Source: Acidimicrobiales bacterium | GTDB lineage: Bacteria; Actinomycetota; Acidimicrobiia; Acidimicrobiales; JACDCH01 | NCBI GenBank assembly: GCA_037724305.1 | Contig: JBBJOU010000001.1 | Coordinates: forward strand, 1 to 29,277 | DNA length: 29,277 bases | Reading direction: 5' to 3' | Shown: positions 235 to 24,281 of the stretch, piece by piece | Numbering within the stretch: position 1 is the first letter of the stretch | Layout of the letters: each line of letters starts with the position of its first letter | The notes under the pieces: model-generated | What the model saw: only the letters and a program-made list of their open reading frames with translations | What the model was told of the DNA's origin: nothing | The model's database searches: none | Position numbers and translations under genes: made by a program

Positions 235-265
235 TTGACAGTTAGTACCCGGGGTGGGCGACAAT
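235..265 (+). promoter_or_regulatory. Candidate sigma70-type promoter for the ABC operon
   Basis: Perfect TTGACA at 235-240 and GACAAT at 260-265, 6 nt before the in-frame ATG at 272. The 19-nt spacer is longer than optimal. Confidence 0.35.
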
Positions 266-271
266 GCGGAC

Positions 272-6609: not shown

Positions 6610-6635
6610 GATCACTGAGGCTATGGTTCGTGGCC
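6610..6635. promoter_or_regulatory. Candidate bidirectional promoter with overlapping -10 elements for two leaderless mRNAs
   Basis: TATGGT (+, 6622-6627) lies 8 nt before ATG 6636. TAGCCT (-, 6623-6618) lies 8 nt before ATG 6609. Neither start has a Shine-Dalgarno. Confidence 0.5.
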
Positions 6636-7650: not shown

Positions 7651-8301
7651 TCACCCGGACAGGGTGTCGAGCAGGTCCTCCATCTCGGGGATCATCGCCT
7701 CCTGCTCGGCCTTGATGGATTCGGCCAGCGCGACGACGTCGGTCTCGTCGCCGTCGCTGATCTCGCGATCGGCCATCGCCACCGCGCCCTCGTGGTGGGT
7801 GATCATGCCCTCGAGGTAGAGCTGATCGAACTCGGCGCCGCTCGCTTCCTCCAGCTCGGCGAACTCGTCCTGGGTGAGCATGCCGTCCATGCGGTCCATG
7901 GTGCTCATGTCCATGCCACCCATGGCGCCGAGCTCTTCCTCGCCGAGCGATTCGAGCAGGGTCTGCATCTCGTCGATCTCGGTGACATGGGTGGCGTCGA
8001 TCTCCTCGGCGAGGGCGACGACGTCCGGGCTCTCGGCGGCGTCCGCCGCCAGGGCGTTCATCGCCACGGCCTGCTCGTGGTGGACGAGCATGTTCTGGAG
8101 GAACTCGACGTCGGGGTCGACGTCCATGCCCTCCTCCATGTCCTCCTCCATGTCCATGTCGCCCATGTCGTCGTCGCCCTCCTCGCCGCCCTCCCCGGTC
8201 GTGACATCGGCACCGGTGTCGACCTCGGGATCGTCGTCGCTCGCGCATGACGCGCCGAACAGCACGATCAGCGCACAGGCAGCTGCAGATATGGGACGCA
8301 T
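7651..8301 (-). CDS. DUF305 (CopM-like) lipoprotein, Met/acidic-rich
   Basis: AGGAGA SD just upstream of ATG 8301. Signal peptide ending FGAS-C (lipobox-like). Two DUF305 repeats (FLQNMLVHHEQAVAM; YLEGMITHHEGAVAM). Confidence 0.9.
   Translation of the reverse strand: MRPISAAACALIVLFGASCASDDDPEVDTGADVTTGEGGEEGDDDMGDMDMEEDMEEGMDVDPDVEFLQNMLVHHEQAVAMNALAADAAESPDVVALAEEIDATHVTEIDEMQTLLESLGEEELGAMGGMDMSTMDRMDGMLTQDEFAELEEASGAEFDQLYLEGMITHHEGAVAMADREISDGDETDVVALAESIKAEQEAMIPEMEDLLDTLSG
8130..8159. repeat. Short coding tandem repeat (CCTCCTCCATGT x2 plus partial)
   Basis: The 12-bp unit occurs at 8130-8141 and 8142-8153. It encodes part of the DMDMEEDMEEGM Met/acidic linker on the minus strand. 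Confidence 0.6.
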
Positions 8302-9587: not shown

Positions 9588-11141
9588 TCATTCGACCGAC
9601 CCGGCGGCGCCCGAGCGGAGCACGAACCGTCGCAGCTTCCCTGTGGGCGTGCGGGGCAGCCCGTCGACGAAGGCCACCGACCTCGGCACCTTGAACGGTG
9701 CCAGGCGGGCGCGCGCCAGGGCGGTCAGCTCCTCGGCCAGCGAGTCGTCACCCGAACCGGGAGCCGCCGGTACGACGAACGCTCGCAGGCGCGAGGCACC
9801 GTCGGCGTCGGTGACGGCGACGACCGCGACCTCGGACACGGCGTCATGGCCACCGAGCAGCTCCTCGATCTCGGCGGGGGCGACCGAGATCCCGCCGACC
9901 ATCTCCATGTCGTCGGCGCGCCCGTGCAGCTGGACGAAGCCGTCGGTGCCGACCGACGCCAGGTCCTCGGTGCGAAGCCAACCCTCGTCGTCGGTGGTGG
10001 CGGCGTCGGGGCGCCCGAGGTACTCGAGGAGGACGGTCGGGCCCCGCACCCACAGCGCGCCGACCTCACCCGGCGCCACGGCCGTCGCGTCCCGCCCGCA
10101 GACGGCGAGCTCGTAGGGCGGCAACGCCCGGCCGACGGTGCCGGGTCGAACCGTGTCGGCGGTGTTGCTGGCGAACGTCTGGCCGACCTCGGTGGAACCG
10201 AGACCGTCGAGCACGGGACAGCCGAGCAGACGGGACGCCTGGGTGGCGAGGTCGGTGGTGAGGCGTTCGCCGGCGGACACGGCGACGCGTACCGACCCGA
10301 AGGCGCCGTCCGCCGCCGGTGCGCACTCCCGGACCAGATTGGCGTAGAAGGTGGGAACGGCGAACAGGACACTGACCTGGTGCCGCTCGACGAGCGCGGC
10401 GGTCTCGGCGGGGCGGGGGCGCAACGCCAACAGGACGGCCCGGGCGCCGCACAGCAACGGGAAGAAGAGCGAGTTGCCGAGGCCGTAGGCGAAGTACATC
10501 TTCGACACCGAGTGCACCACGTCGTCGGGGGCGAGGGTGATGGCACCGTGCGCGAACGCCCGGGTGTACACGAGCGGATCGCCATGGCGGTGCACGGCCG
10601 CCTTCGGAGCGCCCGTGGTGCCCGACGTGTACTGGGCGTAGGCCGGCGCCCCGGCGTCGACGGGGACGGCGGGATGGGGGGAGACAAGGGCGAGCGAGCG
10701 GAGCAGCTCGGGGGCGGTGACGACCTGCGGTCCTCCGTCGAACCGGGACCGGAGCTCGTCGCTGCACACCACGACGCCGGCGCCGCTGTCCTTGGCGAGA
10801 CAGAGGTGGTCGTCGGTCGTCAGCTCGGGGTTGACCGGCACGGCCAGCGCGCCGAGGCGGACGGCGCCCAGGAACGACCACACGAACTCGATGCCGTCGG
10901 GGAGGACGATCAGCACGACGTCTCCGCACCCGACACCCAGCCCGGCCAGCACGGCGGCGGCGCGGGCGGCGCCGTCGTGCACCTCGTCGTGGCTCACCGC
11001 GGTGGCCTCGACGAGGAACGCTGTCCTGGCCCCCCACCCCTGCGCTCGGGCGGTGGCCTCGATCGTTGCCGCCAGGTTGTGCCCGGCCCCGGTGGCGACC
11101 GGGTGCGCCCAGGACGCCGGTGCGCCCGTCAGCCGTCCCAC
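9588..11141 (-). CDS. Aryl-acid adenylating ligase, FadD22/benzoate-CoA-ligase-like (probable 4-hydroxybenzoate-AMP/CoA ligase)
   Basis: YTSGTTGAPKAAVHRH, MYFAYGLGNS, LDGLGSTEVGQTFASN, RADDME, FKVP and PRTPTGKL closely follow mycobacterial FadD22 as recalled. It lacks the FadD22 C-terminal carrier domain. In-frame GTG 11141 overlaps the upstream gene by 13 nt. Confidence 0.85.
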   Translation of the reverse strand: MGRLTGAPASWAHPVATGAGHNLAATIEATARAQGWGARTAFLVEATAVSHDEVHDGAARAAAVLAGLGVGCGDVVLIVLPDGIEFVWSFLGAVRLGALAVPVNPELTTDDHLCLAKDSGAGVVVCSDELRSRFDGGPQVVTAPELLRSLALVSPHPAVPVDAGAPAYAQYTSGTTGAPKAAVHRHGDPLVYTRAFAHGAITLAPDDVVHSVSKMYFAYGLGNSLFFPLLCGARAVLLALRPRPAETAALVERHQVSVLFAVPTFYANLVRECAPAADGAFGSVRVAVSAGERLTTDLATQASRLLGCPVLDGLGSTEVGQTFASNTADTVRPGTVGRALPPYELAVCGRDATAVAPGEVGALWVRGPTVLLEYLGRPDAATTDDEGWLRTEDLASVGTDGFVQLHGRADDMEMVGGISVAPAEIEELLGGHDAVSEVAVVAVTDADGASRLRAFVVPAAPGSGDDSLAEELTALARARLAPFKVPRSVAFVDGLPRTPTGKLRRFVLRSGAAGSVE

Positions 11142-11863
11142 GTGCTGCTCACGTCCGGGTAGTCGAGCCCGGCCTCGTCGACCACGAACTGGCGGCTGCG
11201 ATCGATGAACGCCGCCCGGGCCTCGTCGTTGGTGCGGGACTTGATGCCCCAACGTCGGAACGCCTCGTTGTTGGACGAGCGGCTCCGCCCGAAGAACGGG
11301 AGGGTGAACGGGACCAGGTCGTCGACGGCCTGCTGCACGAGCGGCCGGGTGTCGGCGCTCCGGGCCAGGTTCTTGGCCCTGACCTGGCCGAACGAGACGT
11401 GGAACCGCTCCTCGGGGAGCAGCGCCACCGCCAGGTCCCGCAGGGGCAGGTAGGTCGTCTCGAGCAACTCGTCCATCAGGACGACCTCGGCGAGGTCAAC
11501 GATCGCCTTGAGCACGACGAACTCGACCCAGGTGGTCAGCTCGTACTCGAACACCGACAGTGGGGCACCGGTGAGGGCGTCGGGGAGCTCGAGCTCGGTC
11601 GCCAGCTTCTGGAACCGCAGATGGTGCCCGTACTCCTCCATGGCGATGCGGCAGGCCAGCCACTTGTCGCGCGGGGTGGGCGCCAGGCCGATCGCCGGCT
11701 CGTCGAAGATCGCCGCGCCGGTGTACTCGTTGCGCACGTGGCTGGCGATGACCTTGCCCACCGCGCTCACGTAGTCGGCACCGATCTCCCGTGCCTCGGC
11801 CGGGCCCCGCACCTCGCCGGAGAACGGCGCGTCGACGGTCGGGGCCGCGGTCGGCGCACTCAT
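11129..11863 (-). CDS. Stand-alone PaaA-like ferritin-fold diiron protein (aryl-CoA oxygenase family)
   Basis: Likely ligands NEY, EEYGH (11624-11638), VDLA and EERFH (11399-11413), plus PaaA-like WGIKSRTNDEAR. ATG 11863 overlaps the SDR stop (ATGA). Confidence 0.8.
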   Translation of the reverse strand: MSAPTAAPTVDAPFSGEVRGPAEAREIGADYVSAVGKVIASHVRNEYTGAAIFDEPAIGLAPTPRDKWLACRIAMEEYGHHLRFQKLATELELPDALTGAPLSVFEYELTTWVEFVVLKAIVDLAEVVLMDELLETTYLPLRDLAVALLPEERFHVSFGQVRAKNLARSADTRPLVQQAVDDLVPFTLPFFGRSRSSNNEAFRRWGIKSRTNDEARAAFIDRSRQFVVDEAGLDYPDVSSTWDG

Positions 11864-12804
11864 GAGCGCACCCGGCCGGCGACCGCGATCGGCGGGCCCC
11901 CGAAGAGGTCGAACTCCGACTCGAGCGGGGTGAGGTGGTCGGCGAGGGCGCCGGGCGCGGTGGCGGTGAGCGCCGCCGCATCCCAGCCGTGCGCCTCCAC
12001 GAGCTGCGCGATGGGGCGCGGTTGCGACCAGATCCCGATCTCCGCACCGCGGGCGCCGAACACCTGCCCGGTGATGCCGGCGGCGGCGTCGGAGCAGAGC
12101 CAGGCGATCAGCGGGGCGACGTTGTCGGCCGTGGCCCCTCCGGCCGTCCGGAGGTACTCGCGGAGCTGGTCGGTGGCGGGAGGGATCGACTCGGTCATGC
12201 GGGTGAAGGCGAAGGGGGCGACGTAGTTGACGCAGACGTCGCGACCGGCCATCTCCAGGGCGACCGCCCGGGTGAGCCCGAACAGCCCGGCCTTGGCGAC
12301 GGCGTAGGCGGCCTGCCCGACGCTCCCGACCAGCCCGGCCGCGCCCCCCAGGTAGACGATGCGGCCGGCTCGCTGCGAGCGGATGGGCCCGGCCATGGCG
12401 CGGGTGAGCTCGATCGCCACCGCGAGGTGGGAGCCCATCACCTCGGACCAGTCGTCGTCGTCGGCCTTGTGCACCATGGCGTCGCGCAAGGTGCCGGCGC
12501 TGTGCACGAGGACGGTGGGTGCCCGCCCGGACCACGCCGCCGTCGCCGCCACGATCTGCTCGGCACCGGCGCTCGTGCGCCCGTCGGTGACCTCGACCAT
12601 GGCGAGCCCACCGCGACGGCGGATGTCCTCGACCGTCGCTTCCGCCGGCTCGCGGTCGGGGTCACGACCGCCGACCGTGACGCCGGTGTCGTTCACGCAC
12701 ACAGGGTGACCGGCGGCGCCCAGCGCCAAGGCCACGGCCCGCCCGATGCCGCGACCACCCCCGGAGACGACCGCGACCGGGGGCTCGACGGTGTCGCCGG
12801 TCAT
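11860..12804 (-). CDS. Short-chain dehydrogenase/reductase (MFE-2/3-hydroxyacyl-CoA dehydrogenase-like)
   Basis: SGGGRGIG, VNDTG, AGTLRD, YAVAK (YxxxK), VNYVAP and C-terminal TGQVFG. Start at ATG 12804. Confidence 0.9.
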   Translation of the reverse strand: MTGDTVEPPVAVVSGGGRGIGRAVALALGAAGHPVCVNDTGVTVGGRDPDREPAEATVEDIRRRGGLAMVEVTDGRTSAGAEQIVAATAAWSGRAPTVLVHSAGTLRDAMVHKADDDDWSEVMGSHLAVAIELTRAMAGPIRSQRAGRIVYLGGAAGLVGSVGQAAYAVAKAGLFGLTRAVALEMAGRDVCVNYVAPFAFTRMTESIPPATDQLREYLRTAGGATADNVAPLIAWLCSDAAAGITGQVFGARGAEIGIWSQPRPIAQLVEAHGWDAAALTATAPGALADHLTPLESEFDLFGGPPIAVAGRVRS

Positions 12805-12853
12805 CGCTGCTCGAGGGTGCGCTGCCGGGTCCCGGCGTCGCGCTCGCCCACCG

Positions 12854-13480
12854 TCACGCGGCGCCGCGACCGGCGATCGGGGCGAGGTCCGCGACGGACC
12901 GCGTCTTCGCCGCGATGGTGGCGTCGGGCACCCTCTGGCGGATCGGTGCGAAGCCGGACTTGGCGAACTTCTCGGTGATCCGGGCGAAGGGGCGTCCCCC
13001 GGCGACGATCTCGTAGGTGCGGGCGACCAGCGTGTCCGTGGAGGCGATGCCGAGGTGCGCGGCGACAGCGCCGGCCGGTTCTTCCCACACCGCCAGGATG
13101 TGCCGGAGCGTCTCGAACCGGCAGTCGATGAGCAGCTTGCCGATGGGCCGGTCGGTCTCGAGCACACCGTGCTCGACCGATGGCGGCAGCCGGTCGATGA
13201 CAACGATCGACTCGGCGTACACGAACGCCGTCCCGCTGTCGCGACCCTGGAGGAGGATGGTCCGGCGCAGCGCCCGCTCGCCCTCGTCGAGCGTTGGCTC
13301 CACCGGCTCGCCGGCCGCGACGAGCTCGTTGTCGAGCTTGACCAGCTCTACCGGCTCCCCGGCGTAGGCCTCGAGGATGTGGGTCAGCGTGCCGTCCGTC
13401 GTCAACGCGATCCGCCCGACCACGCTCAGCGCCGACACATCCACGATGCCATCCCAATCCATCACCATTTCAGCAGCCAT
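12854..13480 (-). CDS. Chorismate pyruvate-lyase (4-hydroxybenzoate synthase; Rv2949c/DUF98-like)
   Basis: TTDGTLTHILEAY, R..LLQG...FVYAESIV, PIGKLL, ETLR and RTYEI...PFARITEKF. AGGAGG SD at 13496-13491 upstream of ATG 13480. Confidence 0.85.
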   Translation of the reverse strand: MAAEMVMDWDGIVDVSALSVVGRIALTTDGTLTHILEAYAGEPVELVKLDNELVAAGEPVEPTLDEGERALRRTILLQGRDSGTAFVYAESIVVIDRLPPSVEHGVLETDRPIGKLLIDCRFETLRHILAVWEEPAGAVAAHLGIASTDTLVARTYEIVAGGRPFARITEKFAKSGFAPIRQRVPDATIAAKTRSVADLAPIAGRGAA

Positions 13481-13522
13481 GCGCTGCGTACCTCCTCTGC
13501 CGCCCAGCTTGCCCCACCGGCC

Positions 13523-13550
13523 ACCATAGTCCCATCCGAAAGTATTCGGA
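13523..13550 (-). promoter_or_regulatory. AT-richer spacer with inverted repeat TCCGAA-AGTA-TTCGGA and a TATGGT -10 candidate upstream of the 4-HB operon
   Basis: Perfect 6-bp inverted repeat at 13535-13550. Minus-strand TATGGT at 13528-13523. Confidence 0.4.
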
Positions 13551-13606
13551 CGAGTCGGCGGCATATCACTGGTAGGTGCATTTCGCAGTTAGTTAGAGGG
13601 TCGACA

Positions 13607-14806
13607 TCAACTCGCGTCGCGCTCGGGTCGACTGTCGTCGGCGCCCGTCACCAGCGTGACGAGTGTCGCCACCACCGCGGCGGGACCGGGCATGGCGGCG
13701 ATCTCGGTCGCCACCGCCCCGGCGCGCACCCGCCCCCCGGGCTCGTCCAGCAGGCGGGTCACGGCGTGGCGCACCGCCGCCGGCGTGAGGTCGTCCGGCC
13801 GGATCGTGTGGCCGGCACCGAGGGCTTGGGCGCGATCGGCGTTCCAGAACTGGTTCGCGTCCTGGGGGAGCAGCAGGAGCGGCAGGCTGCGGGCGAGGGC
13901 GGCCAGGGTGGTGCCCGAACCGGCGTGGCAGACGACCAGCTGGCAGTGTTCGAGCAACAGCGACTGCGGCAGGTAGCGCTCGACGTGGACGTTGGCGGCG
14001 AGACGACCGAGCTCGGCCGGGTCCCGGTCCCGCCCGACCGTCACGATCACGTTCCACGGCCCGTCTGCCAGCCCCTCCACGACGCGTTCGAGCACCTCGG
14101 GCGAGTGGTTGACCACGGTCCCCAGCGTGACGTACACCGTCGGCCCTGGCGGGAGCTCGGCGACCCATGGCGGCAGCGGCGCCTGCTCGGGGTTGTCGAA
14201 CGCCACCGGCCGCAACGGCTGGGCGACGCTGATCTCGGCGATCTCGTCGGACTGGAAGCTCGGCGGGCAGACGTCGAGGTAGAGGTGGCGGAACATGGCG
14301 CCCCGTGGCTCCGGCTCGACCCCCCAGGCAGCCCACGTCGGTGCGACCAGCTCGCCCGCCAGGTCCCAGAACTCGCCGGGTTGCAGCGCGCCGAAGCTGT
14401 GCCCCACCCACGGGATGCCGCGATGGGCGGCGGCGACGGGCGCAGCGAAGTCGGTCATGTCGTGGACCACCAGGTCGGCTTCCCATTCGGACGCAGCGGC
14501 GACGAGGTCCTCCACCTTGGGAGGGGCCGCCACCCCGGCGAACATCCGGGCGCCGAAACGCCACACCTCGGCCTCGCCGGCGTCGGCCTTCGGCTGCCCG
14601 TAGCGCTCGAGCGTGCGCTCGTGGGCGACGATCGGGCTCAGCCCGGCGGCGAAGGCGGTGAAGCCGGCCGGTTCCACGACGCGGCGGCAGAACCGCTCGG
14701 CGGTGGCGAACGCCACCTCGTGGCCGGCGGCGGTGAGCGCCTGGGCCAGCGGCACCATCGGGTGGAAGTGGCCGAAGCCGGGAACGCAGGTGCACAGGAC
14801 CCTCAT
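13607..14806 (-). CDS. GT1/MGT-family glycosyltransferase (GT-a)
   Basis: MRVLCTCVPGFGHFHP, HEVAFAT, VYVTLGT, RYLPQS, CHAGSGTT and DQ-like DANQFWNA. GGAGG SD upstream of ATG 14806. Confidence 0.93.
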   Translation of the reverse strand: MRVLCTCVPGFGHFHPMVPLAQALTAAGHEVAFATAERFCRRVVEPAGFTAFAAGLSPIVAHERTLERYGQPKADAGEAEVWRFGARMFAGVAAPPKVEDLVAAASEWEADLVVHDMTDFAAPVAAAHRGIPWVGHSFGALQPGEFWDLAGELVAPTWAAWGVEPEPRGAMFRHLYLDVCPPSFQSDEIAEISVAQPLRPVAFDNPEQAPLPPWVAELPPGPTVYVTLGTVVNHSPEVLERVVEGLADGPWNVIVTVGRDRDPAELGRLAANVHVERYLPQSLLLEHCQLVVCHAGSGTTLAALARSLPLLLLPQDANQFWNADRAQALGAGHTIRPDDLTPAAVRHAVTRLLDEPGGRVRAGAVATEIAAMPGPAAVVATLVTLVTGADDSRPERDAS

Positions 14807-14852
14807 GTCGCGCTCCTCCGCTCGAGTGCAGCTCGAGCCACGTGGACGGTTC

Positions 14853-14894
14853 AGTATGGTCGCCACCCCGCTGACCGGACGCCCTGCGGTCAGC
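14853..14894. promoter_or_regulatory. Divergent promoter region with 8-bp inverted repeat GCTGACCG-N9-CGGTCAGC
   Basis: Inverted repeat at 14870-14894. TATGGT (+) at 14855-14860 and CATACT (-) at 14858-14853, between GT-a and the ligase. Confidence 0.35.
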
Positions 14895-14916: not shown

Positions 14917-16515
14917 GTGACCTCGACGACCTCGTGGAGCCCGCCGACCCTCGCGCCGAGCCTCCAGGCGGCCTGCGACCGGTGGGCCGACCGGCCGGCC
15001 CTCACCTTCCACGGCACCACCATCACCTACGCCGAGCTCGCCCGCCAGGTCGGATCTCTGGCGGCCGCCTACCGTGAGCTGGGGATCGTTCCGGGCGACC
15101 GGGTCGTGTGCCAGTTCACCAACTGTCCCGAGCACGTGGTCGCCATGCACGCCGCCTGGGCCTGCGGCGCCATCCACGTCGGTACCGACAACGACCTGAC
15201 CGGCGAGGAACTGGCGTGGTTGGTGCAACGCACGGGCGCCGCCGCCCTCCTGTTCCAACCGCGGGCCGATCGCGCCGACCCGCTGGCTCCCCTCGCCTCG
15301 GTCCGCGCCATCTCCCCGTCGACGCACATCCTCGTGCACCACGCGGCGGCGTCGGGCCCGCCCGCGGGCACGGTCGCGTTCGCGTCGTTGACCCAGGCGC
15401 CGGCGCCGCCGCCGGCGCCCCCCGCCCTGGCCGACGACGACACCGCCCTGCTGCTGTTGACGTCGGGGACCACCGGCAAGCCGAAGGCGATCATGGAGAC
15501 GCTGCCGCACTGCTGGGCCAAGATGCAGTTCTTCGCCGACGCCTTCGATCCCGGGCCCGACGACGTGCACCTCGTGTTCCTGCCGATCGGCCACGTCTTC
15601 GGCCTGCGCCTCGCCGCCCTGGCCCTGCTCACCGGTGGGCGCCTGGTGCTGCTCGACCGCTTCTCCCCCGAGGAGGCGCTCCGCCTCGTCACCGAGGAGG
15701 CGGTCACCGTGCTGCCGGCGATGCCCGCCCACCTGCGCCTCCTGATCGACCGCCTCGACCCGGGGCGCCACGACGTGTCGCACCTTCGGTGGGCGATCTC
15801 CGCCGCCGCCACCCTGCCCCGACCGCTCTCGGAACGCGTGTACCGCGACACCCCCGCCGAGGTGCTGTTCGTCTACGGGTGCAGCGAAGGGTTCACCACC
15901 CTCACCACCGACCGCGAGGAGATCCTGGCGGGATCGGTGGGCGCCTCGGTGTTCGTCGGCCCCCCCGGCACCGCGCCGGCGGGCACCGTCGCCATCCTCG
16001 ACCCGGCCGACCACCAGCCGCTCCCGGTCGGCGACACCGGCGAGATCGCCTTCGGGGCGCGCCAGCCCGTGCGCTACTGGCACGACCCCGAGGTGGCGAC
16101 CGACGGCTGGTACCACACCGGCGACCTGGGGCGCATGGACGACGAGGGGCGCGTGTACATCGTCGGGCGGCTGAAGGAGCTGGTCAACCGGGGCGGGCTG
16201 AAGGTGGCGCCCAGCGAGATCGAGGCCGCCCTCAGCCGTCACCCCGGTGTCGTCGACGCCGGGGTCGTGGGGACGCCCGACCCCGTGCTCGGCGAGGCCA
16301 TCTGCGCCTGCATCGTCGTCGCCCCCACCGACGCGCCCTCCCTCGCCGAGGTGCGCGCCTACCTCGGCGAGTCGCTCGCCCGCCACAAGCTGCCCGACGA
16401 GCTCTGCCTGATCGAGCACGTGCCGCGGACGAACATCGGCAAGGTGGACCGGACCGCGCTCACCCGCCTCGTCGTCGACGACGACGTCCCCCGCGAGCGA
16501 CTCCGACCCCGTTGA
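14917..16515 (+). CDS. Free-standing class I adenylate-forming enzyme (acyl/aryl-CoA ligase-like)
   Basis: TSGTTGKPK, PIGHVFG, YGCSEG, YHTGDLG, GRLKELVNRGG, HKLPD and PRTNIGKVD. No carrier domain. Confidence 0.92.
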   Translation: MTSTTSWSPPTLAPSLQAACDRWADRPALTFHGTTITYAELARQVGSLAAAYRELGIVPGDRVVCQFTNCPEHVVAMHAAWACGAIHVGTDNDLTGEELAWLVQRTGAAALLFQPRADRADPLAPLASVRAISPSTHILVHHAAASGPPAGTVAFASLTQAPAPPPAPPALADDDTALLLLTSGTTGKPKAIMETLPHCWAKMQFFADAFDPGPDDVHLVFLPIGHVFGLRLAALALLTGGRLVLLDRFSPEEALRLVTEEAVTVLPAMPAHLRLLIDRLDPGRHDVSHLRWAISAAATLPRPLSERVYRDTPAEVLFVYGCSEGFTTLTTDREEILAGSVGASVFVGPPGTAPAGTVAILDPADHQPLPVGDTGEIAFGARQPVRYWHDPEVATDGWYHTGDLGRMDDEGRVYIVGRLKELVNRGGLKVAPSEIEAALSRHPGVVDAGVVGTPDPVLGEAICACIVVAPTDAPSLAEVRAYLGESLARHKLPDELCLIEHVPRTNIGKVDRTALTRLVVDDDVPRERLRPR

Positions 16516-16518
16516 ACG

Positions 16519-17850
16519 TCAGGGGGCGATGCGGTTCGGGCCGCGGTGCAGGTAGGTCACCTCGCGCACGTCGTCGATGCCCAGGATCGACATGAGGGCG
16601 CGGGTGAGCCCGAGGCCGAACCCGCCGTGCGGCGGGCAGCCGAACTTGAAGTAGTCGAGGTAGAACTGGATGGGCGGCAGGTCGATGCCGCGGCTGGCGG
16701 CCTGCTCGACGAGGCGCTCGTAACGGTGCTCCCGTTGGGCGCCGGTGGTCACCTCGAGGCCCTTCCACAGCAGGTCGAACCCGCGGGTGGCGGTCGAGCC
16801 GTCCTCGAGGAGCATGTGGTAGAAGGGCCGCACGGCGGCGCCGTACTCGGTCACGAACACGAACTCGTGGCCGTGGGTGGCGGCGACGTGGGCGGCGAGG
16901 AGCTGCTCGCCCTCGCGGTCGATGTCGCCGGGACGGTGCGGGCCGACCCAGCCGCGGCCGCGGAGGATGTCGTAGGCCTCCTCCATGGGGACCCGGGGGA
17001 ACGGGAGCTCGGGGACGTTGACCTCGACCCCGAAGGTCCGCCGGATGTCGTCGCCGTGCTGGTCGGCGACGGCGGCGATCACGTCGCGGAGCCAGCGCTC
17101 CTCCAGCGCCATCACGTCCTCGTGCGAGGAGATCCAGGAGATCTCCATGTCGACGCTGGTGAACTCGGTGTCGTGGCGATCGGTGGCGTGCGGGTTGGCG
17201 CGGAACACCGGGCCGACCTCGAAGACGCGGTCGAACCCGGCCGCCATCGCCATCTGCTTGTGGAACTGCGGTGACTGCGCCAGGTAGGCGGGCCGTCCGA
17301 AGTAGTCGATGGTGAACAGCTCGCGGCCGGACCGGTTGGACACGGCCCGGATCTTGGGCGAGTGCAGTTCGATGCAGCCGTCCGCCTCCCAGAAGGCCCG
17401 CATCGCCCGCTCGGCGGTGGTCTGCACCTCGAACACGAGCCGGGCGGACCGTCGCCGCAGGTCGAGGAAGCGCCAGTCGAGGCGCTCCTCGACCGGCGAG
17501 TGCTCGTCGATGGGCACCTCGGCCACCGCCGGCCCGACCACCCGCACCTCGGCGACGGTGATCTCGGGGCGCCCATCGCCGGACGGGGCGGCGACGACGC
17601 CGACGGCTTCGACGGCCGACTCGGCGACCAGGCCGACGAGCGCGGCGGCGAGCGGCCCGGTGCCCGCCTCGGCGTCGGCCCCGTCGACGAGCGTCACCCG
17701 ACCGCGGCGATCGCGCAGGACGAGCGAGGGGGCGCCGTCGGCGGCGGTCGGTTCCGCCCAGCCGCACACGCGCACCGTCGCACCCGTCCGGTCGGCGAGG
17801 TCGGTCGCCAGCGACCGGGGGAGGGGAGGGGTAGGAGGAGGCGTCGCCAT
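16519..17850 (-). CDS. aspS: Archaeal-type (non-discriminating-like) aspartyl-tRNA synthetase paralog
   Basis: Class II catalytic core: RLDWRFLDLR, YLAQSPQFHKQ, VFEVGPVFRAN, RHDTEFTSVDME, FDLLWKGLEVTTGAQREH and PPHGGFGLGLTR. The N-terminal OB-fold is divergent. ATG 17850 is preferred over 17934. Confidence 0.88.
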   Translation of the reverse strand: MATPPPTPPLPRSLATDLADRTGATVRVCGWAEPTAADGAPSLVLRDRRGRVTLVDGADAEAGTGPLAAALVGLVAESAVEAVGVVAAPSGDGRPEITVAEVRVVGPAVAEVPIDEHSPVEERLDWRFLDLRRRSARLVFEVQTTAERAMRAFWEADGCIELHSPKIRAVSNRSGRELFTIDYFGRPAYLAQSPQFHKQMAMAAGFDRVFEVGPVFRANPHATDRHDTEFTSVDMEISWISSHEDVMALEERWLRDVIAAVADQHGDDIRRTFGVEVNVPELPFPRVPMEEAYDILRGRGWVGPHRPGDIDREGEQLLAAHVAATHGHEFVFVTEYGAAVRPFYHMLLEDGSTATRGFDLLWKGLEVTTGAQREHRYERLVEQAASRGIDLPPIQFYLDYFKFGCPPHGGFGLGLTRALMSILGIDDVREVTYLHRGPNRIAP

Positions 17851-17952
17851 GGTGGAAGTCGTCGTCCCGCCCGCCCCAGGGCACGGCCTCGGGCGGCGGG
17901 AGGCTGGTACGGTACTCGCTCCGTCCGGCGGCACAGGTTGGGGGAGAGAGCC

Positions 17953-17985
17953 ATGGCTGTATCCGATCGCGGCGCCGGCTCGTGA
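17953..17985 (+). other. Putative 10-aa upstream ORF (MAVSDRGAGS) coupled to GT-b
   Basis: GGGGAGAGAG purine tract at 17941-17950, ATG at 17953, and a TGA that overlaps the GT-b GTG (GTGA, 17982-17985). Confidence 0.35.
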
Positions 17986-19190
17986 GGGCCCTGTTCACCT
18001 GCCTCCCGGGCCACGGGCACTTCAACCCGATGCTGCCGCTGGCGCTGGCCACGGCCGGGGCCGGCCACGAGGTCGCCTTCGCCACCGCCGACGACTTCTG
18101 TCCCCGGGTCGAGAAGGCCGGGTTCCGTGCGTTCCCGGTGGGGTTGAGCCTCGAGTCGCAGCTCACCCAGGCCCGGGCGCGCTACCCCGAGCAGGCGGCC
18201 ATGGTCGGCGAGGAGCGCTTCGAGAACTTCGTCCCGCGGATGCTCGCCGGGGTCGCCGCACCCGCTCGCGCCGCAGACCTGATGGAGGCGGCGCGCGACT
18301 GGCGCCCTGATCTCCTGGTGCACGACGAGGCCGACTTCTCAGCGGCCGTCGTGGCCGAGGCCCTCGGGGTGCCGTGCGCCGACCACAGCGTGGGCATCCT
18401 GCGTCCGCTGGCCATGGCCCGCCTGGCGGGCGAGGTCCTCGAGCCGTTGTGCGCGCAGTACGGGGTCGACGTGGGGGAGTTCGGTGGGCTGTTCCGCTGG
18501 CTCTACCTCGACGTCGCCCCGCCCAGCCTCCAGTCGGGTGAGATCGGCCAGGTCGCCGTCGCCCACCAGGCCCAGAACGCCACCCTCGACGCCGGTGCCG
18601 AGGGCGAGACCCTCCCGGCGTGGGTGGAACGGTTGAGCGGGGCGCCGGTCGTCTACGTGAGCCTCGGCACGGTGTTCAACGAGCGGGCCGGTGCGGTGTT
18701 CTCGGCCATTCTCGATGGCCTGCGGTCAGAACCCGTCGAGGTGATCGTGACGATCGGCTCCGGGAACGACCCGTCGGTCTTCGGGGCCCAGCCCGACCAC
18801 ATCCACGTGGAGCAGTTCATCCCCCAGTCGCTGCTGCTGCCGTTCTGCGACGTGGTGGTGAACCAGGGGGGCACGGCGATCCTGCCGATCCTCGCCAACG
18901 GCCTGCCTCTCCTCCTGCTCCCCCAGGGGGCGAACCAGTTCCACAACGCCGAGGCGTGCGTGGCGGCGGGCGTCGGTCGGCGCCTGCTGCCGGGCGAGGT
19001 CACCGCCGAGTCCGTACGGGAGGAGGTCCGGCGCCTCCTCGACGAACCGAGCTTCCGCGATCGGGCGACCACCGTGCAGGCGGAGCTCCTCGCCATGCCC
19101 GGGCCCGAGCACGGCCGCGAGTTGCTCGAAGCGCTGGTGACGACGGGCCAGCCGATCCCGGGCACGGGCCACGAGCCCGCCGCCCCGTGA
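17982..19190 (+). CDS. GT1/MGT-family glycosyltransferase (GT-b), paralog of GT-a
   Basis: MRALFTCLPGHGHFNP, HEVAFAT, VYVSLGT, QFIPQS and GANQFHNA. Colinear with GT-a. Confidence 0.92.
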   Translation: MRALFTCLPGHGHFNPMLPLALATAGAGHEVAFATADDFCPRVEKAGFRAFPVGLSLESQLTQARARYPEQAAMVGEERFENFVPRMLAGVAAPARAADLMEAARDWRPDLLVHDEADFSAAVVAEALGVPCADHSVGILRPLAMARLAGEVLEPLCAQYGVDVGEFGGLFRWLYLDVAPPSLQSGEIGQVAVAHQAQNATLDAGAEGETLPAWVERLSGAPVVYVSLGTVFNERAGAVFSAILDGLRSEPVEVIVTIGSGNDPSVFGAQPDHIHVEQFIPQSLLLPFCDVVVNQGGTAILPILANGLPLLLLPQGANQFHNAEACVAAGVGRRLLPGEVTAESVREEVRRLLDEPSFRDRATTVQAELLAMPGPEHGRELLEALVTTGQPIPGTGHEPAAP

Positions 19191-20590
19191 CCGCGTCCGA
19201 GGTGGACCTCACCGACGGAGGTGCCGTCGACGACCTCGACCCGGAGTCCGCGCCCCGGATCGTCACCGAGGTCCCCGGCCCCCGGTCCCGGGAGCTGTGG
19301 GCGCGTGACGCCGCCCACCACGCCGGCAACTCCTCGCCCGCCGCCCAGTTCCTGCAGCTGGTGCTGCACGACGGGCGCGGCGCGGCCGTGCGTGACGTCG
19401 ACGGCAACGTCTTCATCGACTTCTGCTCGGGGGCCGTCGTCGCCAACCTCGGTCACGCCCCGCCACCCGTGGCCGAGGCGCTGGGCGCGGAGGCCAAGCG
19501 ACTCATGCACGCCTTCGACTTCGCCACGCCGTCGCGGGCGGCGTTCTTCGAGCGCCTGGCCCGCACCCTCCCGGCCAGCCTGCAGACCTTCCAGATGTAC
19601 TCCACCGGGGCCGAGGCGGTCGAGGCGGCCCTGCGCCTGGCGAAGTCGTACACCAAGGGCTACGAGGTCATGGCGTTCCACCAGGCGTGGCACGGGCGAA
19701 CGTCGGGGGCGATGGCGCTCATGGGCGGCTTCGGGCTCAAGCACGGCTACGGCCCGTTCGCCCCCGGCGCGATCCACAGTCCCAACGCCAACTGCTACCG
19801 CTGCCCGGTGGGGCTCACCGAGGACCGCTGCCAGGTCGCCTGCGCCGGGCTGGCAGAGCGCATGTACGAGCAGGTGAGCGAGCGCAAGCTGGCGGCGGTG
19901 ATCATCGAGGTGATCCAGGGTGTCGGCGGGGTGATCACCCATCCCCCCGAGTTCCTCGCCCGCCTGCGCGAGCTGTGCGACCGCACGGGGGCGCTGCTCA
20001 TCTTCGACGAGATCCTCACCGGGGTCGGCCGCACCGGACCGATGTGGGCCTTCGAGCCCACGGGCGTGCTGCCCGACGTCCTGATCGCCGGGAAGGGCCT
20101 GGCGAGCGGCTACCCGATCTCGCTCATCGCGTCACGGCGGGAGGTGCTCGACGCGCTCCCCTTCGGCATGCCCGGTGCGGGGGCGTCGACCTTCGCCAGC
20201 GGCGGGCTGGCCTGCGCCGCCGGCGTCGCCACCCTCGACATGCTCGCCGACGGGTCGATCCTGGAGCACGGTCGGCGGGTGGGTGCCGTCATGCTGGCGG
20301 CGCTGCACGAGCTGGCCGAGCGCCACCCGATGATCGGCGACGTCCGCGGTGCGGGGATGCTCATGGCGCTCGAGTTCGTGCGCGACCGGGCGACCAAGGC
20401 GCCGATCGCCCCCGTCACCGGACGGCGGCTGCTGCTGGCCCTGGCCGCCCGGGGGGTGCTCGTGGCCGGCGCCGGCCCGGTGCTGCGCATCACCCCGCCG
20501 CTCGTCATCAGCGAGCGCGCCGCCCTGCGAGGTATCGAGCTGCTCGACGACGCCCTCGCCGAGGTCGCCGCCCAGGCCGAGGAGGCCTGA
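19187..20590 (+). CDS. Class III PLP-dependent aminotransferase (GabT/omega-aminotransferase-like)
   Basis: DVDGNVFIDF, NLGH, TGAEAVE, WHGRT, FDEILTGVGRTG and PDVLIAGKG (PLP Lys at 20093-20095). GTGA overlap with GT-b. Confidence 0.93.
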   Translation: MTASEVDLTDGGAVDDLDPESAPRIVTEVPGPRSRELWARDAAHHAGNSSPAAQFLQLVLHDGRGAAVRDVDGNVFIDFCSGAVVANLGHAPPPVAEALGAEAKRLMHAFDFATPSRAAFFERLARTLPASLQTFQMYSTGAEAVEAALRLAKSYTKGYEVMAFHQAWHGRTSGAMALMGGFGLKHGYGPFAPGAIHSPNANCYRCPVGLTEDRCQVACAGLAERMYEQVSERKLAAVIIEVIQGVGGVITHPPEFLARLRELCDRTGALLIFDEILTGVGRTGPMWAFEPTGVLPDVLIAGKGLASGYPISLIASRREVLDALPFGMPGAGASTFASGGLACAAGVATLDMLADGSILEHGRRVGAVMLAALHELAERHPMIGDVRGAGMLMALEFVRDRATKAPIAPVTGRRLLLALAARGVLVAGAGPVLRITPPLVISERAALRGIELLDDALAEVAAQAEEA

Positions 20591-20595: not shown

Positions 20596-21114
20596 GTGTG
20601 CGGGCCCGAGGCCGGCGAGCCCGTCTCGACGGGTGAGGCCGGCGCCGCTCGACCCTCGACCGCCCCCGGTGGTTGGGCCGCGGTCCACCACGTCGGCGTC
20701 ACGGTGCGCGATCTCGACCGCTCGGCCGCCTTCTGGGAGCGGCTCGTCGGATCTGCGGCACGGGACCGCCGGGTCCTGCAGGGGCCCCAGCTCTCGACGA
20801 TGGTCGGCTACGAGGGCATCCGCATCGACTCGTGCTGGGTCGACCTCCCGGGCGGGGTGGCGCTGGAACTGCTCCAGTACCTCGACCGCAACGATGCGGC
20901 CTATGACCCCGGCACCGCGCACCCCGGCAACGTGCACGTGTGCCTGCGCGTCGACGACATGGACGCCGCCCACGCCCATGCCGTGGCGTGTGGTGCCCAC
21001 CCGGTGAGCGAGCGGCCGATCGAGGTCGCCGCCGGCCCCAAGGCCGGGACCCGCCTCGCCTACCTGCGCGACCTCGACGGCGTGACCATCGAGCTGATCC
21101 AGCCCTCACCGTGA
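20596..21114 (+). CDS. VOC-family protein (glyoxalase/methylmalonyl-CoA epimerase-like)
   Basis: HHVGVTV, LELLQY, HVCLRVDD and DLDGVTIELIQ give a complete His/Glu/His/Glu metal ligand set. Start uncertain. Confidence 0.85.
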   Translation: MCGPEAGEPVSTGEAGAARPSTAPGGWAAVHHVGVTVRDLDRSAAFWERLVGSAARDRRVLQGPQLSTMVGYEGIRIDSCWVDLPGGVALELLQYLDRNDAAYDPGTAHPGNVHVCLRVDDMDAAHAHAVACGAHPVSERPIEVAAGPKAGTRLAYLRDLDGVTIELIQPSP

Positions 21115-22868
21115 GCGAGCTCGCGAGCACCGCCCCCGTCGTGCCCGACCTGCTCCGGGCCCGGGCCGCCGACGATCCGGACGCCGTGGCCCTCCGAGTG
21201 GGCGACGCTGGCGAGCTGACGCTCGGCGACTGGGAACGACGGTCCAATGCCGCCGCCCGAGGCCTCGTTGACCGGGGCCTGCGACCGGGCCAGCTGGTGG
21301 CGCTGCTCCTCGACAACGATGACCTGGTCGAGTACGCGGTCGGCTATCTCGCCGTGCTCAAGGCCGGTGCCGTGGCCGTGCCGTTGGGCCGCCGCTTCGC
21401 CGGCCCGCAGCTCGACCACATTCTGCGCTCCGCCACCGTCGTCGGCGTCCTGTCGGGGACCGGTGCCCCGCCGCTAGCGGCGGGCGCGTGGGTGGCGCGA
21501 CCCGCCGCGCTGGAGGCCGACCAGGCGGACGACCGCTACCAGGTCGGCGTCGAGAGCACCGAGCTGGCCGAGGTGATCTACACGTCGGGCACGACCGGGA
21601 TGCCCCAGGGCGTGACCTGCACCCACGCCAACCTCATGGCCCACGACGTCCCGCCCGACGCCGCCGCGGTGCACGGCACGATCTCGTTCCTGCACTGTTT
21701 CCCGATCGGGACCCAGGCAGCACAGGAGGCGATGCGGGTGCCGCTCCGGGTGGCGAAGCGCGTGGCGGTGGCGCTCCCCGTCTTCGACCCGGCCCAGTTG
21801 TGCGCCCTCGTCGCCCGCCACCGGGTCGCCCGGCTCCAGCTGGTGCCGGCGTTGGCCCAGATGCTGGTCAGCTCGGACGCCCACCGCCACCACGACCTGT
21901 CGTCGGTGCGCCGGGTGATCCTGTCGTCGGCCCACGCCCCTCCGGCGCTGTTCGCCCGCCTCACCGAGATCTTCCCCGAGGCCACGCTGTGGAACGCCTA
22001 CGCCCTCACCGAGGCCGGTGGTGCCCGCACCCTCATGCAATGGGACGAGCGCCGCCCCTCTTCGGTCGGCCGGCCGGTGGGCGAGACCGAGCTGCGCATC
22101 GTCGGCGAGTCCGGCGACGACCGGGGGACGGGCGAGACCGGTGAGGTGTGGCTGCGGCGCCGGGCGACGCCCACGCGGGGGTACTACCGGGACCCCGCCG
22201 CCACCGCCGCCGTGTTCGTCGACGGCTGGGTGCGCAGCGGCGACCTCGGCCACCTCGACGCCGACGGGTACCTGCACCTCGACGACCGCCTGAAGGACGT
22301 CATCATCTCCGGCGGCCTCAACATCAGCTCGGTCGAGATCGAGGATGCCCTCAGCGAGCACCCGGCGGTGGTCGAGGCGGCGGTGTTCGGCGTGCCCCAC
22401 CCGGTGCTCGGCGAACAGGTCGCCGCCGCCGTGGTGGCCGCTCCCGGCACCACCGAGCGCGACCTGCGCAACTTCGTGCGCACCCGCCTGGCCGAGCACC
22501 AGGTGCCGCGCCGCCTGGTGCTGGTCGACGAGCTGCCCCGCAACCCCTCGGGCAAGGTGCGCAAGACCGACCTGCGCCGGCGCTACGGCGAGGACGGGTC
22601 AGCCGCCCCGAACGTTGCCCCCACGGGGACGATGGAGGAGGCGGTGGCGGCGGTGTGGGCGGAGCTGCTGGGCGTGCCGGCGGTCGGCGCCCACGACGAC
22701 TTCTTCGCCCTCGGCGGCCACTCGCTCGTCGCCGTGCAGATCACCGCCCGCCTCGGTGAGGCGTTCGGCATCGAGCTGGATGCCGGCGCCGTGTTCGAGG
22801 CGCCGACGGTCGCCGAGCTGGCGGTCGTGCTTGCCGCGGCCCGCGCTGCGAGCGGGGCCGGCACGTAA
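21111..22868 (+). CDS. Acyl-CoA-ligase-type adenylation domain fused to a peptidyl carrier (A-T loading protein)
   Basis: YTSGTTG, YALTEAG, RSGDLG, DRLKDVIISGG and PRNPSGKV, followed by FFALGGHSL (GGHS at 22713-22724). GTGA overlap with the VOC stop. Confidence 0.92.
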   Translation: MSELASTAPVVPDLLRARAADDPDAVALRVGDAGELTLGDWERRSNAAARGLVDRGLRPGQLVALLLDNDDLVEYAVGYLAVLKAGAVAVPLGRRFAGPQLDHILRSATVVGVLSGTGAPPLAAGAWVARPAALEADQADDRYQVGVESTELAEVIYTSGTTGMPQGVTCTHANLMAHDVPPDAAAVHGTISFLHCFPIGTQAAQEAMRVPLRVAKRVAVALPVFDPAQLCALVARHRVARLQLVPALAQMLVSSDAHRHHDLSSVRRVILSSAHAPPALFARLTEIFPEATLWNAYALTEAGGARTLMQWDERRPSSVGRPVGETELRIVGESGDDRGTGETGEVWLRRRATPTRGYYRDPAATAAVFVDGWVRSGDLGHLDADGYLHLDDRLKDVIISGGLNISSVEIEDALSEHPAVVEAAVFGVPHPVLGEQVAAAVVAAPGTTERDLRNFVRTRLAEHQVPRRLVLVDELPRNPSGKVRKTDLRRRYGEDGSAAPNVAPTGTMEEAVAAVWAELLGVPAVGAHDDFFALGGHSLVAVQITARLGEAFGIELDAGAVFEAPTVAELAVVLAAARAASGAGT

Positions 22869-22973
22869 GGGTCGCGGGACGACGAGTGGCGGCGGAGTCG
22901 GTCGGTGGCGGAACGCCTCGCGACCGAGGAGGAGTTGATCGACGCCGGCAACGGGTGTGCTACTGACGTCGGC

Positions 22974-24281
22974 GTGTCCTTCGTCGAGGTCTGCGTCATC
23001 GCCCTCGCCCTGGTTTCCTATGCGCTGATCTCCAAGCGGATAGAAGGTTGGCCGCTGAGCATGCCCATGGTCTTCGTCGGCCTGGGCTGGATCACTGAAG
23101 CCACCGGCGTGGTGTCGTTGTCGACCGAGACAGGCCAGGTGGCCGTGCTCGCCGAGGTCACCCTGGCGATCATCCTCTTCGGCGACGCCGTACGCATCAA
23201 CGTCCGCGCCCTCGGCCACGACCTGTCGCTTCCCGCCCGCTTGCTGCTCATCGGACTCCCGCTGAGCATCGCCACCACCACCGCCGTGGTGGCGTTGGTG
23301 TTGCCCAGGTTGTCGCTGGCCGAGGCGGCCCTGGTGGCGGCCGTGCTCGCCCCCACCGATGCCGCCCTGGGCAAGGAGGTGGTCGAAGACGAGTCGGTCC
23401 CTCAGCGGATCCGGCGATCGCTCAATGTCGAGTCCGGGCTCAACGACGGGATGGTGCTCCCGGCCGTGCTGATCTTCCTGGCGCTGGCCAAAGGGGAGGA
23501 GACCACGGCCGGGTTCTGGAGTCGCTTCGTCTTCCAGCAGGTGGGCCTGGGTGTGGTCATCGGCATCTCGGCCGGGGCCGCCGGGGCCTGGCTGCTCCTC
23601 CGGGCCCAGGACCGGGACTGGGTCGAAGGGATCTACGCCCAGTTGGGCACCTTGGCCGTTGCCGTCTTGGCCTTCGCCGGTGCCGATACAGCGGGAGCCA
23701 ACGGCTTCATCGCCGCCTTCGTGGCCGGCTTGGCCTTCGGGGCCATCGCCGGGCGGGGCCGGGGGGACCACCTGGTCGAGTACACCGAGGACAGCGGCCA
23801 GCTCTTGGCCGTGGTCGCCTTCTTCGCCTTCGGCAACCTCTTCGTCAACGATGCCCTGCGCGCCCTCTCGCCGGGGGTGGTGGCCGCCTCGGTGGCCGCC
23901 TTGACGCTCGGGCGACTCCTGCCGGTGGCCTTGGCCATGACCGGCACGGGGGCGGCCTGGCCCACCAAGGTCTTCGTCGGTTGGTTCGGGCCGAGGGGGC
24001 TGGCCTCCATCGTCTTCGGCCTGTTGCTTCTCGAAGAGGACCTGGCCGGCGCCGAGGAGCTGTTCGCCATCATCGCCTTGACGGTGGTGGCCAGCGTGTT
24101 CGCCCACGGCGCCTCGGCCGCCCCGTGGTCTCGGGCCTACGGGCGCTGGTTCGCCGCCATGTCGACGCACGAGCGCCAGTCCATGCCCGAGTCCCTGCCC
24201 GTCCCGCCGGGACGCAGCCGGTGGTCGACGGCTCGGTCACATCCGGACGCCGATCCTGGTGGGGGCAGCGGGTCCCGGTAG
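22974..24281 (+). CDS. CPA1/NhaP-like cation:proton antiporter
   Basis: Many transmembrane segments with LAPTDAALG, ESGLNDG and GWFGPRGLASIV. The ORF opens at GTG 22905; GTG 22974 is preferred. Confidence 0.92.
   Translation: MSFVEVCVIALALVSYALISKRIEGWPLSMPMVFVGLGWITEATGVVSLSTETGQVAVLAEVTLAIILFGDAVRINVRALGHDLSLPARLLLIGLPLSIATTTAVVALVLPRLSLAEAALVAAVLAPTDAALGKEVVEDESVPQRIRRSLNVESGLNDGMVLPAVLIFLALAKGEETTAGFWSRFVFQQVGLGVVIGISAGAAGAWLLLRAQDRDWVEGIYAQLGTLAVAVLAFAGADTAGANGFIAAFVAGLAFGAIAGRGRGDHLVEYTEDSGQLLAVVAFFAFGNLFVNDALRALSPGVVAASVAALTLGRLLPVALAMTGTGAAWPTKVFVGWFGPRGLASIVFGLLLLEEDLAGAEELFAIIALTVVASVFAHGASAAPWSRAYGRWFAAMSTHERQSMPESLPVPPGRSRWSTARSHPDADPGGGSGSR

Follow-up and report, generated by a model that had tools for sequence, protein, structure and literature searches.

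Why does a biosynthetic gene cluster hold a gene of the aspartyl-tRNA synthetase (AspRS) type when its genome carries another AspRS elsewhere? The question is raised by a 29,277-nucleotide stretch of DNA (the whole stretch analysed, hereafter designated the window; contig JBBJOU010000001.1, 72% GC) from a 2.47-Mb, 79% complete metagenome-assembled genome (MAG) of an Acidimicrobiales bacterium (GCA_037724305.1). The window is one biosynthetic cluster, in which an open reading frame (ORF) encodes a 443-residue AspRS-derived paralogue (hereafter designated the AspRS-like protein; Table 1). Judging from what this protein has kept and lost, it is probably an enzyme that adenylates aspartate, or a close analogue, and passes the aspartyl group to a non-tRNA acceptor.

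The ORF, which contains all the motif strings quoted in an earlier sequence-only reading of this DNA, has a GC content of 0.93 at third codon positions. A GTG at 17934, upstream of its ATG, is unlikely to be the start because homologues align from about residue 6–12. The sole Pfam domain found was tRNA-synt_2 (class II D/K/N catalytic domain, residues 121–433), and the anticodon-binding family tRNA_anti-codon (PF01336) gave no match to the protein even at E ≤ 10. Among the NCBIfam models, the protein scored below the cut-offs of the archaeal-type AspRS model TIGR00458 (297.6 versus 368.4), the AsnRS, bacterial AspRS and LysRS models, the AsnA model NF005052 (131.6 versus 368), and the EpmA/GenX model TIGR00462 (49.5 versus 286.9). 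Its best match in the PDB was Thermococcus kodakarensis AspRS (3nel/1b8a; E 7.6e-82), followed by Thermus AspRS2 (1n9w), the identity to these archaeal-type structures being 35–36%.

More than 120 relatives at 58–72% identity, mostly from MAGs of Acidimicrobiales and other Actinomycetota, were found in a search of 5.8 billion proteins; the named ones are annotated as aspartate--tRNA(Asn) ligase, and all share PN[KQR]SG[RS]ELF in the flipping loop, FRA[NQ]P in motif 2, and TTGAQREHR. Together with more distant relatives drawn from an HMMER scan of 1.84 billion cluster representatives, they gave an alignment of 227 full-length sequences that is divided by the flipping loop: 118 read N-[not E]-S/T-G, and almost all of the other 109, the canonical relatives (outgroup), read x-E-[G/S]-G. 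The 118 sequences are monophyletic (support 1.0) on a stem of 0.405 substitutions per site, and their nearest neighbours, P0125 and P0122, are canonical. As judged from these sequences, the AspRS-like gene belongs to a whole divergent clade and is not a single odd gene. Only one of 200 sampled genomes of the window's class contained a relative at ≥50% identity (52%); this protein is canonical, matches PF01336, and is encoded among helicase, ABC and two-component genes outside any cluster.

Throughout the clade the catalytic core is kept, as the sequence-only reading had stated for the single gene. Motif 2 (PVFRANPHATDRHDTEFT), motif 3 (PPHGGFGLGLTRALM), QSPQxxK, the D..E motif (present in the string VDMEISW) and the GxQR Arg, that is, the features needed for binding ATP and aspartate, are invariant; thus, S193, P194, Q195, K198, Q199, R217, H226, E229, F230, D234, E236, E366, R373, H375 and R417 were identical in 52 clade members. 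These residues correspond to the ATP site and the aspartate side-chain site of AspRS structures, and the Arg of GAQREHR is the one that pairs with the side-chain carboxylate of Asp in AspRS.

The residues that read tRNA have fared differently. In a screen for positions that are conserved at ≥80% in the 109 relatives yet unconstrained in the clade, only four passed, namely, the Phe, Gln and Glu of anticodon readout and the Glu of the flipping loop (Table 1). A readout Arg preceding the first loop (80% Arg and 12% Lys in the outgroup; A36 in the AspRS-like protein), found separately from this screen, is also lost in the clade. At the anticodon-readout sites no single residue exceeds 27% among the 118 members, and the flipping-loop Glu site is occupied by Arg (35%), Gln (30%), Lys (27%), Met (5%) and Ala (3%). 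Alignment with 3nel/1b8a and 1n9w placed S42 at the Phe, T53 at the Gln and R173 at the flipping-loop Glu, in agreement with the original proposal that the anticodon-reading Arg, Phe and Gln had been replaced and that the flipping loop had changed to SNRSG. Phe33, Gln44 and Glu76 of the Thermus non-discriminating AspRS, which form the core of anticodon readout (10.64898/2026.05.03.722492), align with the Phe, Gln and Glu positions freed in the clade, and the flipping loop contacts the 3′ end of tRNA(Asp) together with motif 2 (PMC3824080). These losses are not due to chance, because they are shared by a clade of 118 members at sites that are otherwise 94–98% conserved (80% for the Arg). Since neither the canonical readout of the GUC anticodon by Arg, Phe, Gln and Glu (E96 being retained at a site that is free in the clade) nor the flipping-loop Glu (xE[GS]G) was found on inspection, the protein should not be filed as a working AspRS.

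For motif 2, said to be altered as well, the outcome was mixed. The change of FRAE to FRAN was rejected as a mark of lost function, since N219 is common to canonical sisters: Solirubrobacterales AspRS2 with canonical residues in the oligonucleotide/oligosaccharide-binding (OB) domain and the flipping-loop Glu also read FRANPS. The relaxation of the loop tip did hold: S221 and F222, which are conserved at 99% and 96%, respectively, across 76 sister loci, vary in the clade. The sister AspRS2 group itself, a large one found outside clusters in Solirubrobacterales, Streptomyces, Kitasatospora, Anaerolineae and Microbacteriaceae (L022–L096, e.g. L023, L042 and L056), has canonical OB residues and reads ASESGA and FRA[NDE]PSFTSRH; many members have Asn or Asp for the motif-2 Glu and, from their sequences, look like working synthetases.

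The freed flipping-loop site bears on the choice of substrate. The Glu at this position binds the α-ammonium group in AspRS, and 92% of the clade have Arg, Gln or Lys in its place; the acid activated might therefore be an aspartate analogue with no cationic α substituent, such as an N-acyl-aspartate, malate or a β-substituted aspartate, in place of free L-Asp, and the cluster does encode a family III CoA-transferase of the dicarboxylate type. Such a substrate is nevertheless very unlikely, as Q195 and S193 of QSPQ and the side-chain triad K198/D234/R373 are invariant, fitting aspartate itself, and a position that varies to include Met and Ala would hardly be a specific ligand contact.

The N-terminal domain had been described as eroded, which proved to be incorrect. 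In an AlphaFold2 (AF2) model built on 52 homologues (predicted local distance difference test (pLDDT) score 87; predicted template-modelling score 0.84), the OB barrel of residues 12–106 is predicted to be complete, with five strands and a helix at pLDDT 82–96, and Foldseek aligned the model with AspRS structures, 3nel at a template-modelling score of 0.85. Pairwise identity in the clade is 0.43 for the N domain and 0.66 for the catalytic domain, giving an identity ratio of 0.64–0.66, as compared with 0.74–0.76 in the sister enzymes. Moreover, the N domain carries a net charge of −3.7, versus +0.3 in canonical relatives, about 40% of its basic residues being gone, and conserved residues specific to the clade have been gained both here (R27, C29 and T49) and in the catalytic domain (R168, N172, D227, and several Trp and His). 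According to the model, the anticodon domain is thus folded and re-tooled, not eroded, and its retention argues for a macromolecular or bulky partner that is still bound.

Does the gene belong to the cluster or merely adjoin it? Ten contigs with clade members at 56–72% identity carry the same gene set. A scan of 185,579 species genomes yielded 80 loci, in which the window genes were searched by tblastn and the motifs were typed: each of the 12 loci typed as belonging to the clade has three or more cluster genes within 10 kb, and at the 76 loci with canonical motifs (drawn from Solirubrobacterales, Streptomyces, Kitasatospora, Anaerolineae, Microbacteriaceae and Latescibacterota) not one cluster gene was matched at ≥40% identity. 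When four contexts read from Pfam gene tables were added and overlapping loci were merged, 16 distinct clade contexts were obtained, and every one lies inside the same cluster of nonribosomal peptide synthetase (NRPS), glycosyltransferase (GT) and aminotransferase genes. The cluster is widespread, in uncultured Acidimicrobiales and Solirubrobacterales. In 13 of the 16 contexts the AspRS-like gene is tied to a unit encoding a GT, an aminotransferase, a VOC-family protein and an adenylation domain fused to a carrier domain (A-T), in the first three of the arrangements listed in Table 1. The GT1 gene is paired with it also in L004, L005, L010/11, L097, L098, L100 and L021, and the aminotransferase has orthologues at 69–78% identity in clade loci and in the genomes of L018 and L025. 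Where it was not seen within 10 kb of a locus it is still encoded in the genome, in one case 17 kb away on the same contig.

Translation, for its part, appears to be served from elsewhere. A bacterial-type aspS with the insertion domain (NF001750; 756.6 bits versus a cut-off of 443) was found on contig 225 of the window's genome, which makes the AspRS-like gene a second one and supplies the separate housekeeping copy that the sequence-only reading had asked to be confirmed. Also present in this genome are gatB, an asparagine synthase of the AsnB type and, on contig 313, a fragment of lysS; at its 79% completeness it yielded no AsnRS. Translation is therefore served without the AspRS-like gene. 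Five other genomes with close relatives of the gene each encode a bacterial-type AspRS and LysRS, so that a bacterial-type AspRS was found in 6/6 clade-bearing genomes checked. The gene is thus a fixed cluster member and not the sole AspRS of its genome, and no enzyme with its substitutions turned up outside the cluster (16/16 inside); a sole AspRS, or such enzymes outside biosynthetic clusters, had been named beforehand as counting against a specialised function.

These data bear on whether the protein is an ordinary non-discriminating AspRS2 for tRNA-dependent asparagine synthesis, of the Thermus and Deinococcus type, lying beside the cluster by chance. The presence of gatB, the missing AsnRS and the passing of an NCBI model for such enzymes (given below) would fit. 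This explanation is essentially excluded by the linkage of 16/16 clade contexts versus 0/76 canonical sister contexts, by the loss of readout residues that Thermus AspRS2 keeps, and by the bacterial-type AspRS in every genome checked. A link to the reassignment of ACA to Asp, the subject of an Acidimicrobiales preprint (10.64898/2026.05.03.722492), was considered because that work deals with AspRS whose anticodon reading is altered, and was also rejected; no AspRS duplicate is reported there, and the AspRS-like gene has no ACA codon.

An extra copy in the cluster with a housekeeping copy elsewhere is, on the other hand, what is expected of self-resistance, the alternative already raised in the sequence-only reading. 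The cluster product would inhibit the bacterial-type AspRS, and the archaeal-type enzyme would keep charging tRNA(Asp/Asn). The second gene is indeed of another phylogenetic type, the pattern matches that of known aminoacyl-tRNA synthetase (aaRS) resistance genes (PMC5388404), and a mimic of aspartyl-adenylate could in principle be kept out by the altered flipping loop and motif 2. A resistance copy must, however, still charge tRNA and hence recognize tRNA(Asp), for which the anticodon is a major identity element, and the apparatus for this is not complete: the Arg/Phe/Gln/Glu readout is unconstrained across the 118 members with no conserved substitutes, constraint is relaxed at the motif-2 loop tip and at the flipping-loop Glu, and the N domain is acidic. 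Self-resistance is thus distinctly unlikely, and the alternative is disfavoured.

Collectively, the AspRS-like protein is most likely a neofunctionalised descendant of an archaeal-type AspRS that would serve secondary metabolism and not translation, because an intact adenylation core goes together with released tRNA-reading sites, newly conserved residues on a long stem, strict linkage to the cluster, and a housekeeping enzyme encoded elsewhere. Presumably, aspartyl-AMP (or the corresponding adenylate of a close analogue) is formed by the enzyme, and the aspartyl group is then passed to a nucleophile other than tRNA that is produced through the adjacent GT, ω-aminotransferase, VOC and A-T genes; given the gene linkage, the acceptor is probably connected with the product of this unit. 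One option would be an amine or hydroxyl of an intermediate made by the neighbours. EpmA/GenX (a LysRS paralogue) and MshC (a CysRS paralogue) transfer an activated amino acid to the amine of a protein or an amino-sugar, and the GT and aminotransferase neighbourhood suggests such logic for the AspRS-like gene. The other option would be the phosphopantetheine thiol of the A-T carrier, by the logic of amino acid:carrier-protein ligases. In either case the retained and re-tooled OB domain probably docks the new partner. The earlier interpretation was similar: its preference for a non-tRNA acceptor is supported by the loss of readout with a kept core, and no acceptor of the types that it named, a carrier protein, an amine or a sugar, was identified in the analysis.

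In a more specific form of this proposal, AspRS would have been recruited as a trans-acting NRPS loader, the OB domain, freed from the anticodon and re-tooled at clade-specific residues (R27, C29 and H48/T49), docking the A-T carrier and Asp being placed onto its phosphopantetheine arm or onto a carrier-bound amine. We regard this form as tentative and unlikely; if it were true, a translation enzyme would in effect stand in for an adenylation domain. Complex prediction for the AspRS-like dimer with the T domain of A-T gave a score of 0.00 against a mark of 0.34, which is neither support nor evidence against it.

Several points weigh against aspartyl transfer to a non-tRNA acceptor. The cut-off of the NCBI AspRS(Asn) model NF003483, aspartate--tRNA(Asn) ligase, is still passed (401.6 versus 353). 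T223, R225 and H226 of the motif-2 loop and the hinge RLDWRFLDLR are conserved, so that, from the sequence, acceptor-stem binding would be possible. In addition, purifying selection has preserved the whole length of the N-terminal domain, which AsnA and EpmA, both tRNA-independent class IIb paralogues, have lost. The same features, that is, a full AspRS architecture including the OB domain and hinge motif and the three conserved motif-2 loop residues, would be accounted for if the protein charged tRNA through acceptor-stem contacts only, with the Asp-tRNA being used by another cluster enzyme. Dedicated aminoacyl-tRNA supply has a precedent in VlmL, which supplies VlmA, and the conserved RNase Z-like metallo-β-lactamase-fold (MBL) gene, which is translationally coupled to the AspRS-like gene in L008 and neighbours it in L009/L018 and L025, is also in its favour. 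However, no Pfam family of the known aminoacyl-tRNA-dependent transferases (Fem/GNAT, CDPS and LanB-type) was found in the cluster, ARAGORN detected no tRNA gene in the window, and an Rfam scan of 16000–18500 revealed no T-box or other RNA element. Moreover, charging without anticodon readout would lack efficiency and specificity, and the housekeeping enzyme already yields Asp-tRNA. Such a supply is consequently unlikely; like self-resistance, it is less likely than transfer to a non-tRNA acceptor, because both need tRNA recognition.

Table 1 Features of the window, of the AspRS-like gene and of its contexts in other genomes (residue names in the readout rows follow T. kodakarensis-type numbering)
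Feature	Positions	Strand	Remarks
AspRS-derived paralogue, 443 residues	16519..17850	−	ATG at 17850; stop at 16519–16521
N-terminal OB-fold domain, residues 12–106	17533..17817	−	Fold predicted to be retained
OB strands β1–β3, residues 30–55, GWAEPTAADGAPSLVLRDRRGRVTLV, site of the lost Arg/Phe/Gln readout (A36, S42 and T53)	17686..17763	−	
Flipping loop, residues 167–179, IRAVSNRSGRELF	17314..17352	−	SNRSG at 171–175; Glu of canonical xE(G/S)G is Arg173; Asn172 invariant in clade
QSPQFHKQ, aspartate-binding motif, residues 192–199	17254..17277	−	S193, P194, Q195, K198 and Q199 invariant
Motif 2, PVFRANPHATDRHDTEFT, with FRAN...RH at residues 216–226	17158..17211	−	R217, H226, E229 and F230 invariant; tip 221–222 relaxed versus sisters
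GAQREHR, residues 370–376	16723..16743	−	R373 99% in clade, 97% in outgroup
Motif 3, including GFGLGLTR	16591..16635	−	R417 invariant
Readout Phe36			Outgroup 94% F; S42 in AspRS-like protein
Readout Gln47			Outgroup 94% Q; T53 in AspRS-like protein
Readout Glu89	17563-17565		Outgroup 98% E; E96 in AspRS-like protein, site unconstrained in clade
Flipping-loop Glu170			Outgroup 97% E; R173 in AspRS-like protein
AspRS-like gene directly downstream of A-T gene, co-directional			L006/7, L099, L017, L019, L020
AspRS-like gene inside GT-aminotransferase-VOC operon			L097, L098, L021
AspRS-like gene divergent from GT-aminotransferase-VOC operon			Window, L004, L005, L010/11, L100
AspRS-like gene behind MBL gene			L008, L009/L018, L025
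ABC exporter	254-2148		
YtkA-like	2156-2593		
Phosphopantetheinyl transferase	2488-3348		
NRPS A-T-C	3289-6615	−	
RNase Z-like MBL	6630-7631	+	
DUF305	7651-8301	−	
Sulfotransferase	8344-9561		
FadD22-like 4-hydroxybenzoate ligase, PaaA-like protein, SDR, chorismate lyase	9588-13564	−	
GT1	13607-14866	−	
Stand-alone AMP-binding ligase	14917..16515	+	Convergent with AspRS-like gene, 3-nt gap
GT1 (EryCIII-like) glycosyltransferase	17982..19190	+	Divergent from AspRS-like gene; heads GT-aminotransferase-VOC-A-T operon
Class-III (ω-type) aminotransferase	19187..20590	+	
VOC/glyoxalase-family protein	20596..21114	+	
Acyl-CoA-ligase-like A domain fused to carrier (T) domain	21111..22868	+	
Na/H exchanger-family transporter	22905-24281		
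C-Asub protein, 675 residues	24345-26372	−	
Family III CoA-transferase (dicarboxylate-type)	26369-28216	−	
NosD-like β-helix	28540-		

In the window, the AspRS-like gene and the divergent GT-aminotransferase-VOC-A-T operon are separated by a 131-bp intergenic region (17851–17981) with no Rfam match; the promoter region they share suggests co-regulation. The MBL protein is nearest to ribonuclease Z (NF000806, 121 bits, below the cut-off) and to guanitoxin GntH, and the stop of its gene overlaps the start of the AspRS-like gene in L008. The protein may act as a release hydrolase, or its presence may point to a step linked to tRNA. The C-Asub protein, encoded directly after the CoA-transferase, contains only a condensation (C) domain and a subdomain of an adenylation (A) domain. 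Its counterparts are single proteins of 920–960 residues with AMP-binding, Condensation and, in some, weak AMP-binding_C matches (L004:2191-5034, L005:2205-5035, L008:6151-8919 and L009:4255-7128; split into two genes in L005), and this arrangement could represent an A domain into which a C domain is inserted, with the A core lost in the window. Replacement of this missing core by the AspRS-like enzyme was rejected as a general explanation, since other clusters hold both the A core and the AspRS-like gene. Genes for YtkA-like, DUF305 and cupredoxin-like proteins recur in the cluster across genomes (2156–2593 and 7651–8301 in the window, L004:11304-11708, L005:11310-11768 and L009:8361-8837), which suggests a connection of copper handling with the product or with its export.

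Variants of the cluster were also seen. GCA_017884215.1 contains two sub-clusters with sulfotransferase, ligase, SDR, PaaA, aminotransferase, GT and AspRS-like genes on different contigs (L011 and L100), with their own clade paralogues, P0119 and P0085. In the second copy there are, in addition, genes for a GT4, a methyltransferase and another sulfotransferase. The variant at L099:2604-20008 keeps the order of the A-T and AspRS-like genes and adds an O-methyltransferase, a DegT-type sugar aminotransferase, an NDP-sugar epimerase/dehydratase, an MbtH protein and an NRPS fused to an ABC ATPase.

No description of the clade was found in the literature on AspRS paralogues in clusters, aaRS-like NRPS loaders and AspRS self-resistance. 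A third lineage of AspRS paralogues, full-length, anticodon-blind, with intact catalytic residues, and fixed in an uncharacterised cluster, would be new, and if the proposed function is correct it would provide a clean natural example of an aaRS leaving translation, the residues released being those that read tRNA. In practice, the current label aspartate--tRNA(Asn) ligase misleads both resistance-guided genome mining and inventories of tRNA charging, and the gene offers a handle on the chemistry of the cluster, in that an aspartyl unit is to be sought in the product.

Comparison with known systems places the clade among several precedents. EpmA has no OB domain and MshC is a class I enzyme, whereas the AspRS-like protein is of class II and has an OB domain. 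With the archaeal-type non-discriminating AspRS (3nel/1b8a and 1n9w) it shares the two-domain architecture, length, class II motifs, and Asp- and ATP-binding residues; unlike them, the clade has no conserved Arg/Phe/Gln/Glu readout, flipping-loop Glu or motif-2 tip, and it is found only in the cluster, beside a housekeeping AspRS. The aaRS self-resistance genes known in clusters, such as mupM/IleRS2, the albomycin SerRS2 and the borrelidin ThrRS (PMC5388404), keep full tRNA recognition, whereas the clade has lost the tRNA-reading residues. AspRS paralogues in reviews are limited to AsnA/AS-AR, in which the N domain is lost, and the fungal ErdS, which still charges tRNA (PMC9437257). AsnA, a descendant of the AspRS core, passes ATP-activated aspartate to a non-tRNA nucleophile (PMC9437257) and lacks the N-terminal OB domain; the AspRS-like protein keeps this domain and is encoded in a secondary-metabolite cluster. 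Like the SerRS-like amino acid:[carrier protein] ligases (Mocibob et al., cited in PMC9437257), which no longer use tRNA, it is a class II aaRS homologue encoded beside carrier proteins, an A-T gene lying directly upstream in five clusters. Unlike those ligases, which have no tRNA-binding domain, it belongs to the AspRS family, retains its N domain, and has no stand-alone carrier next to its gene.

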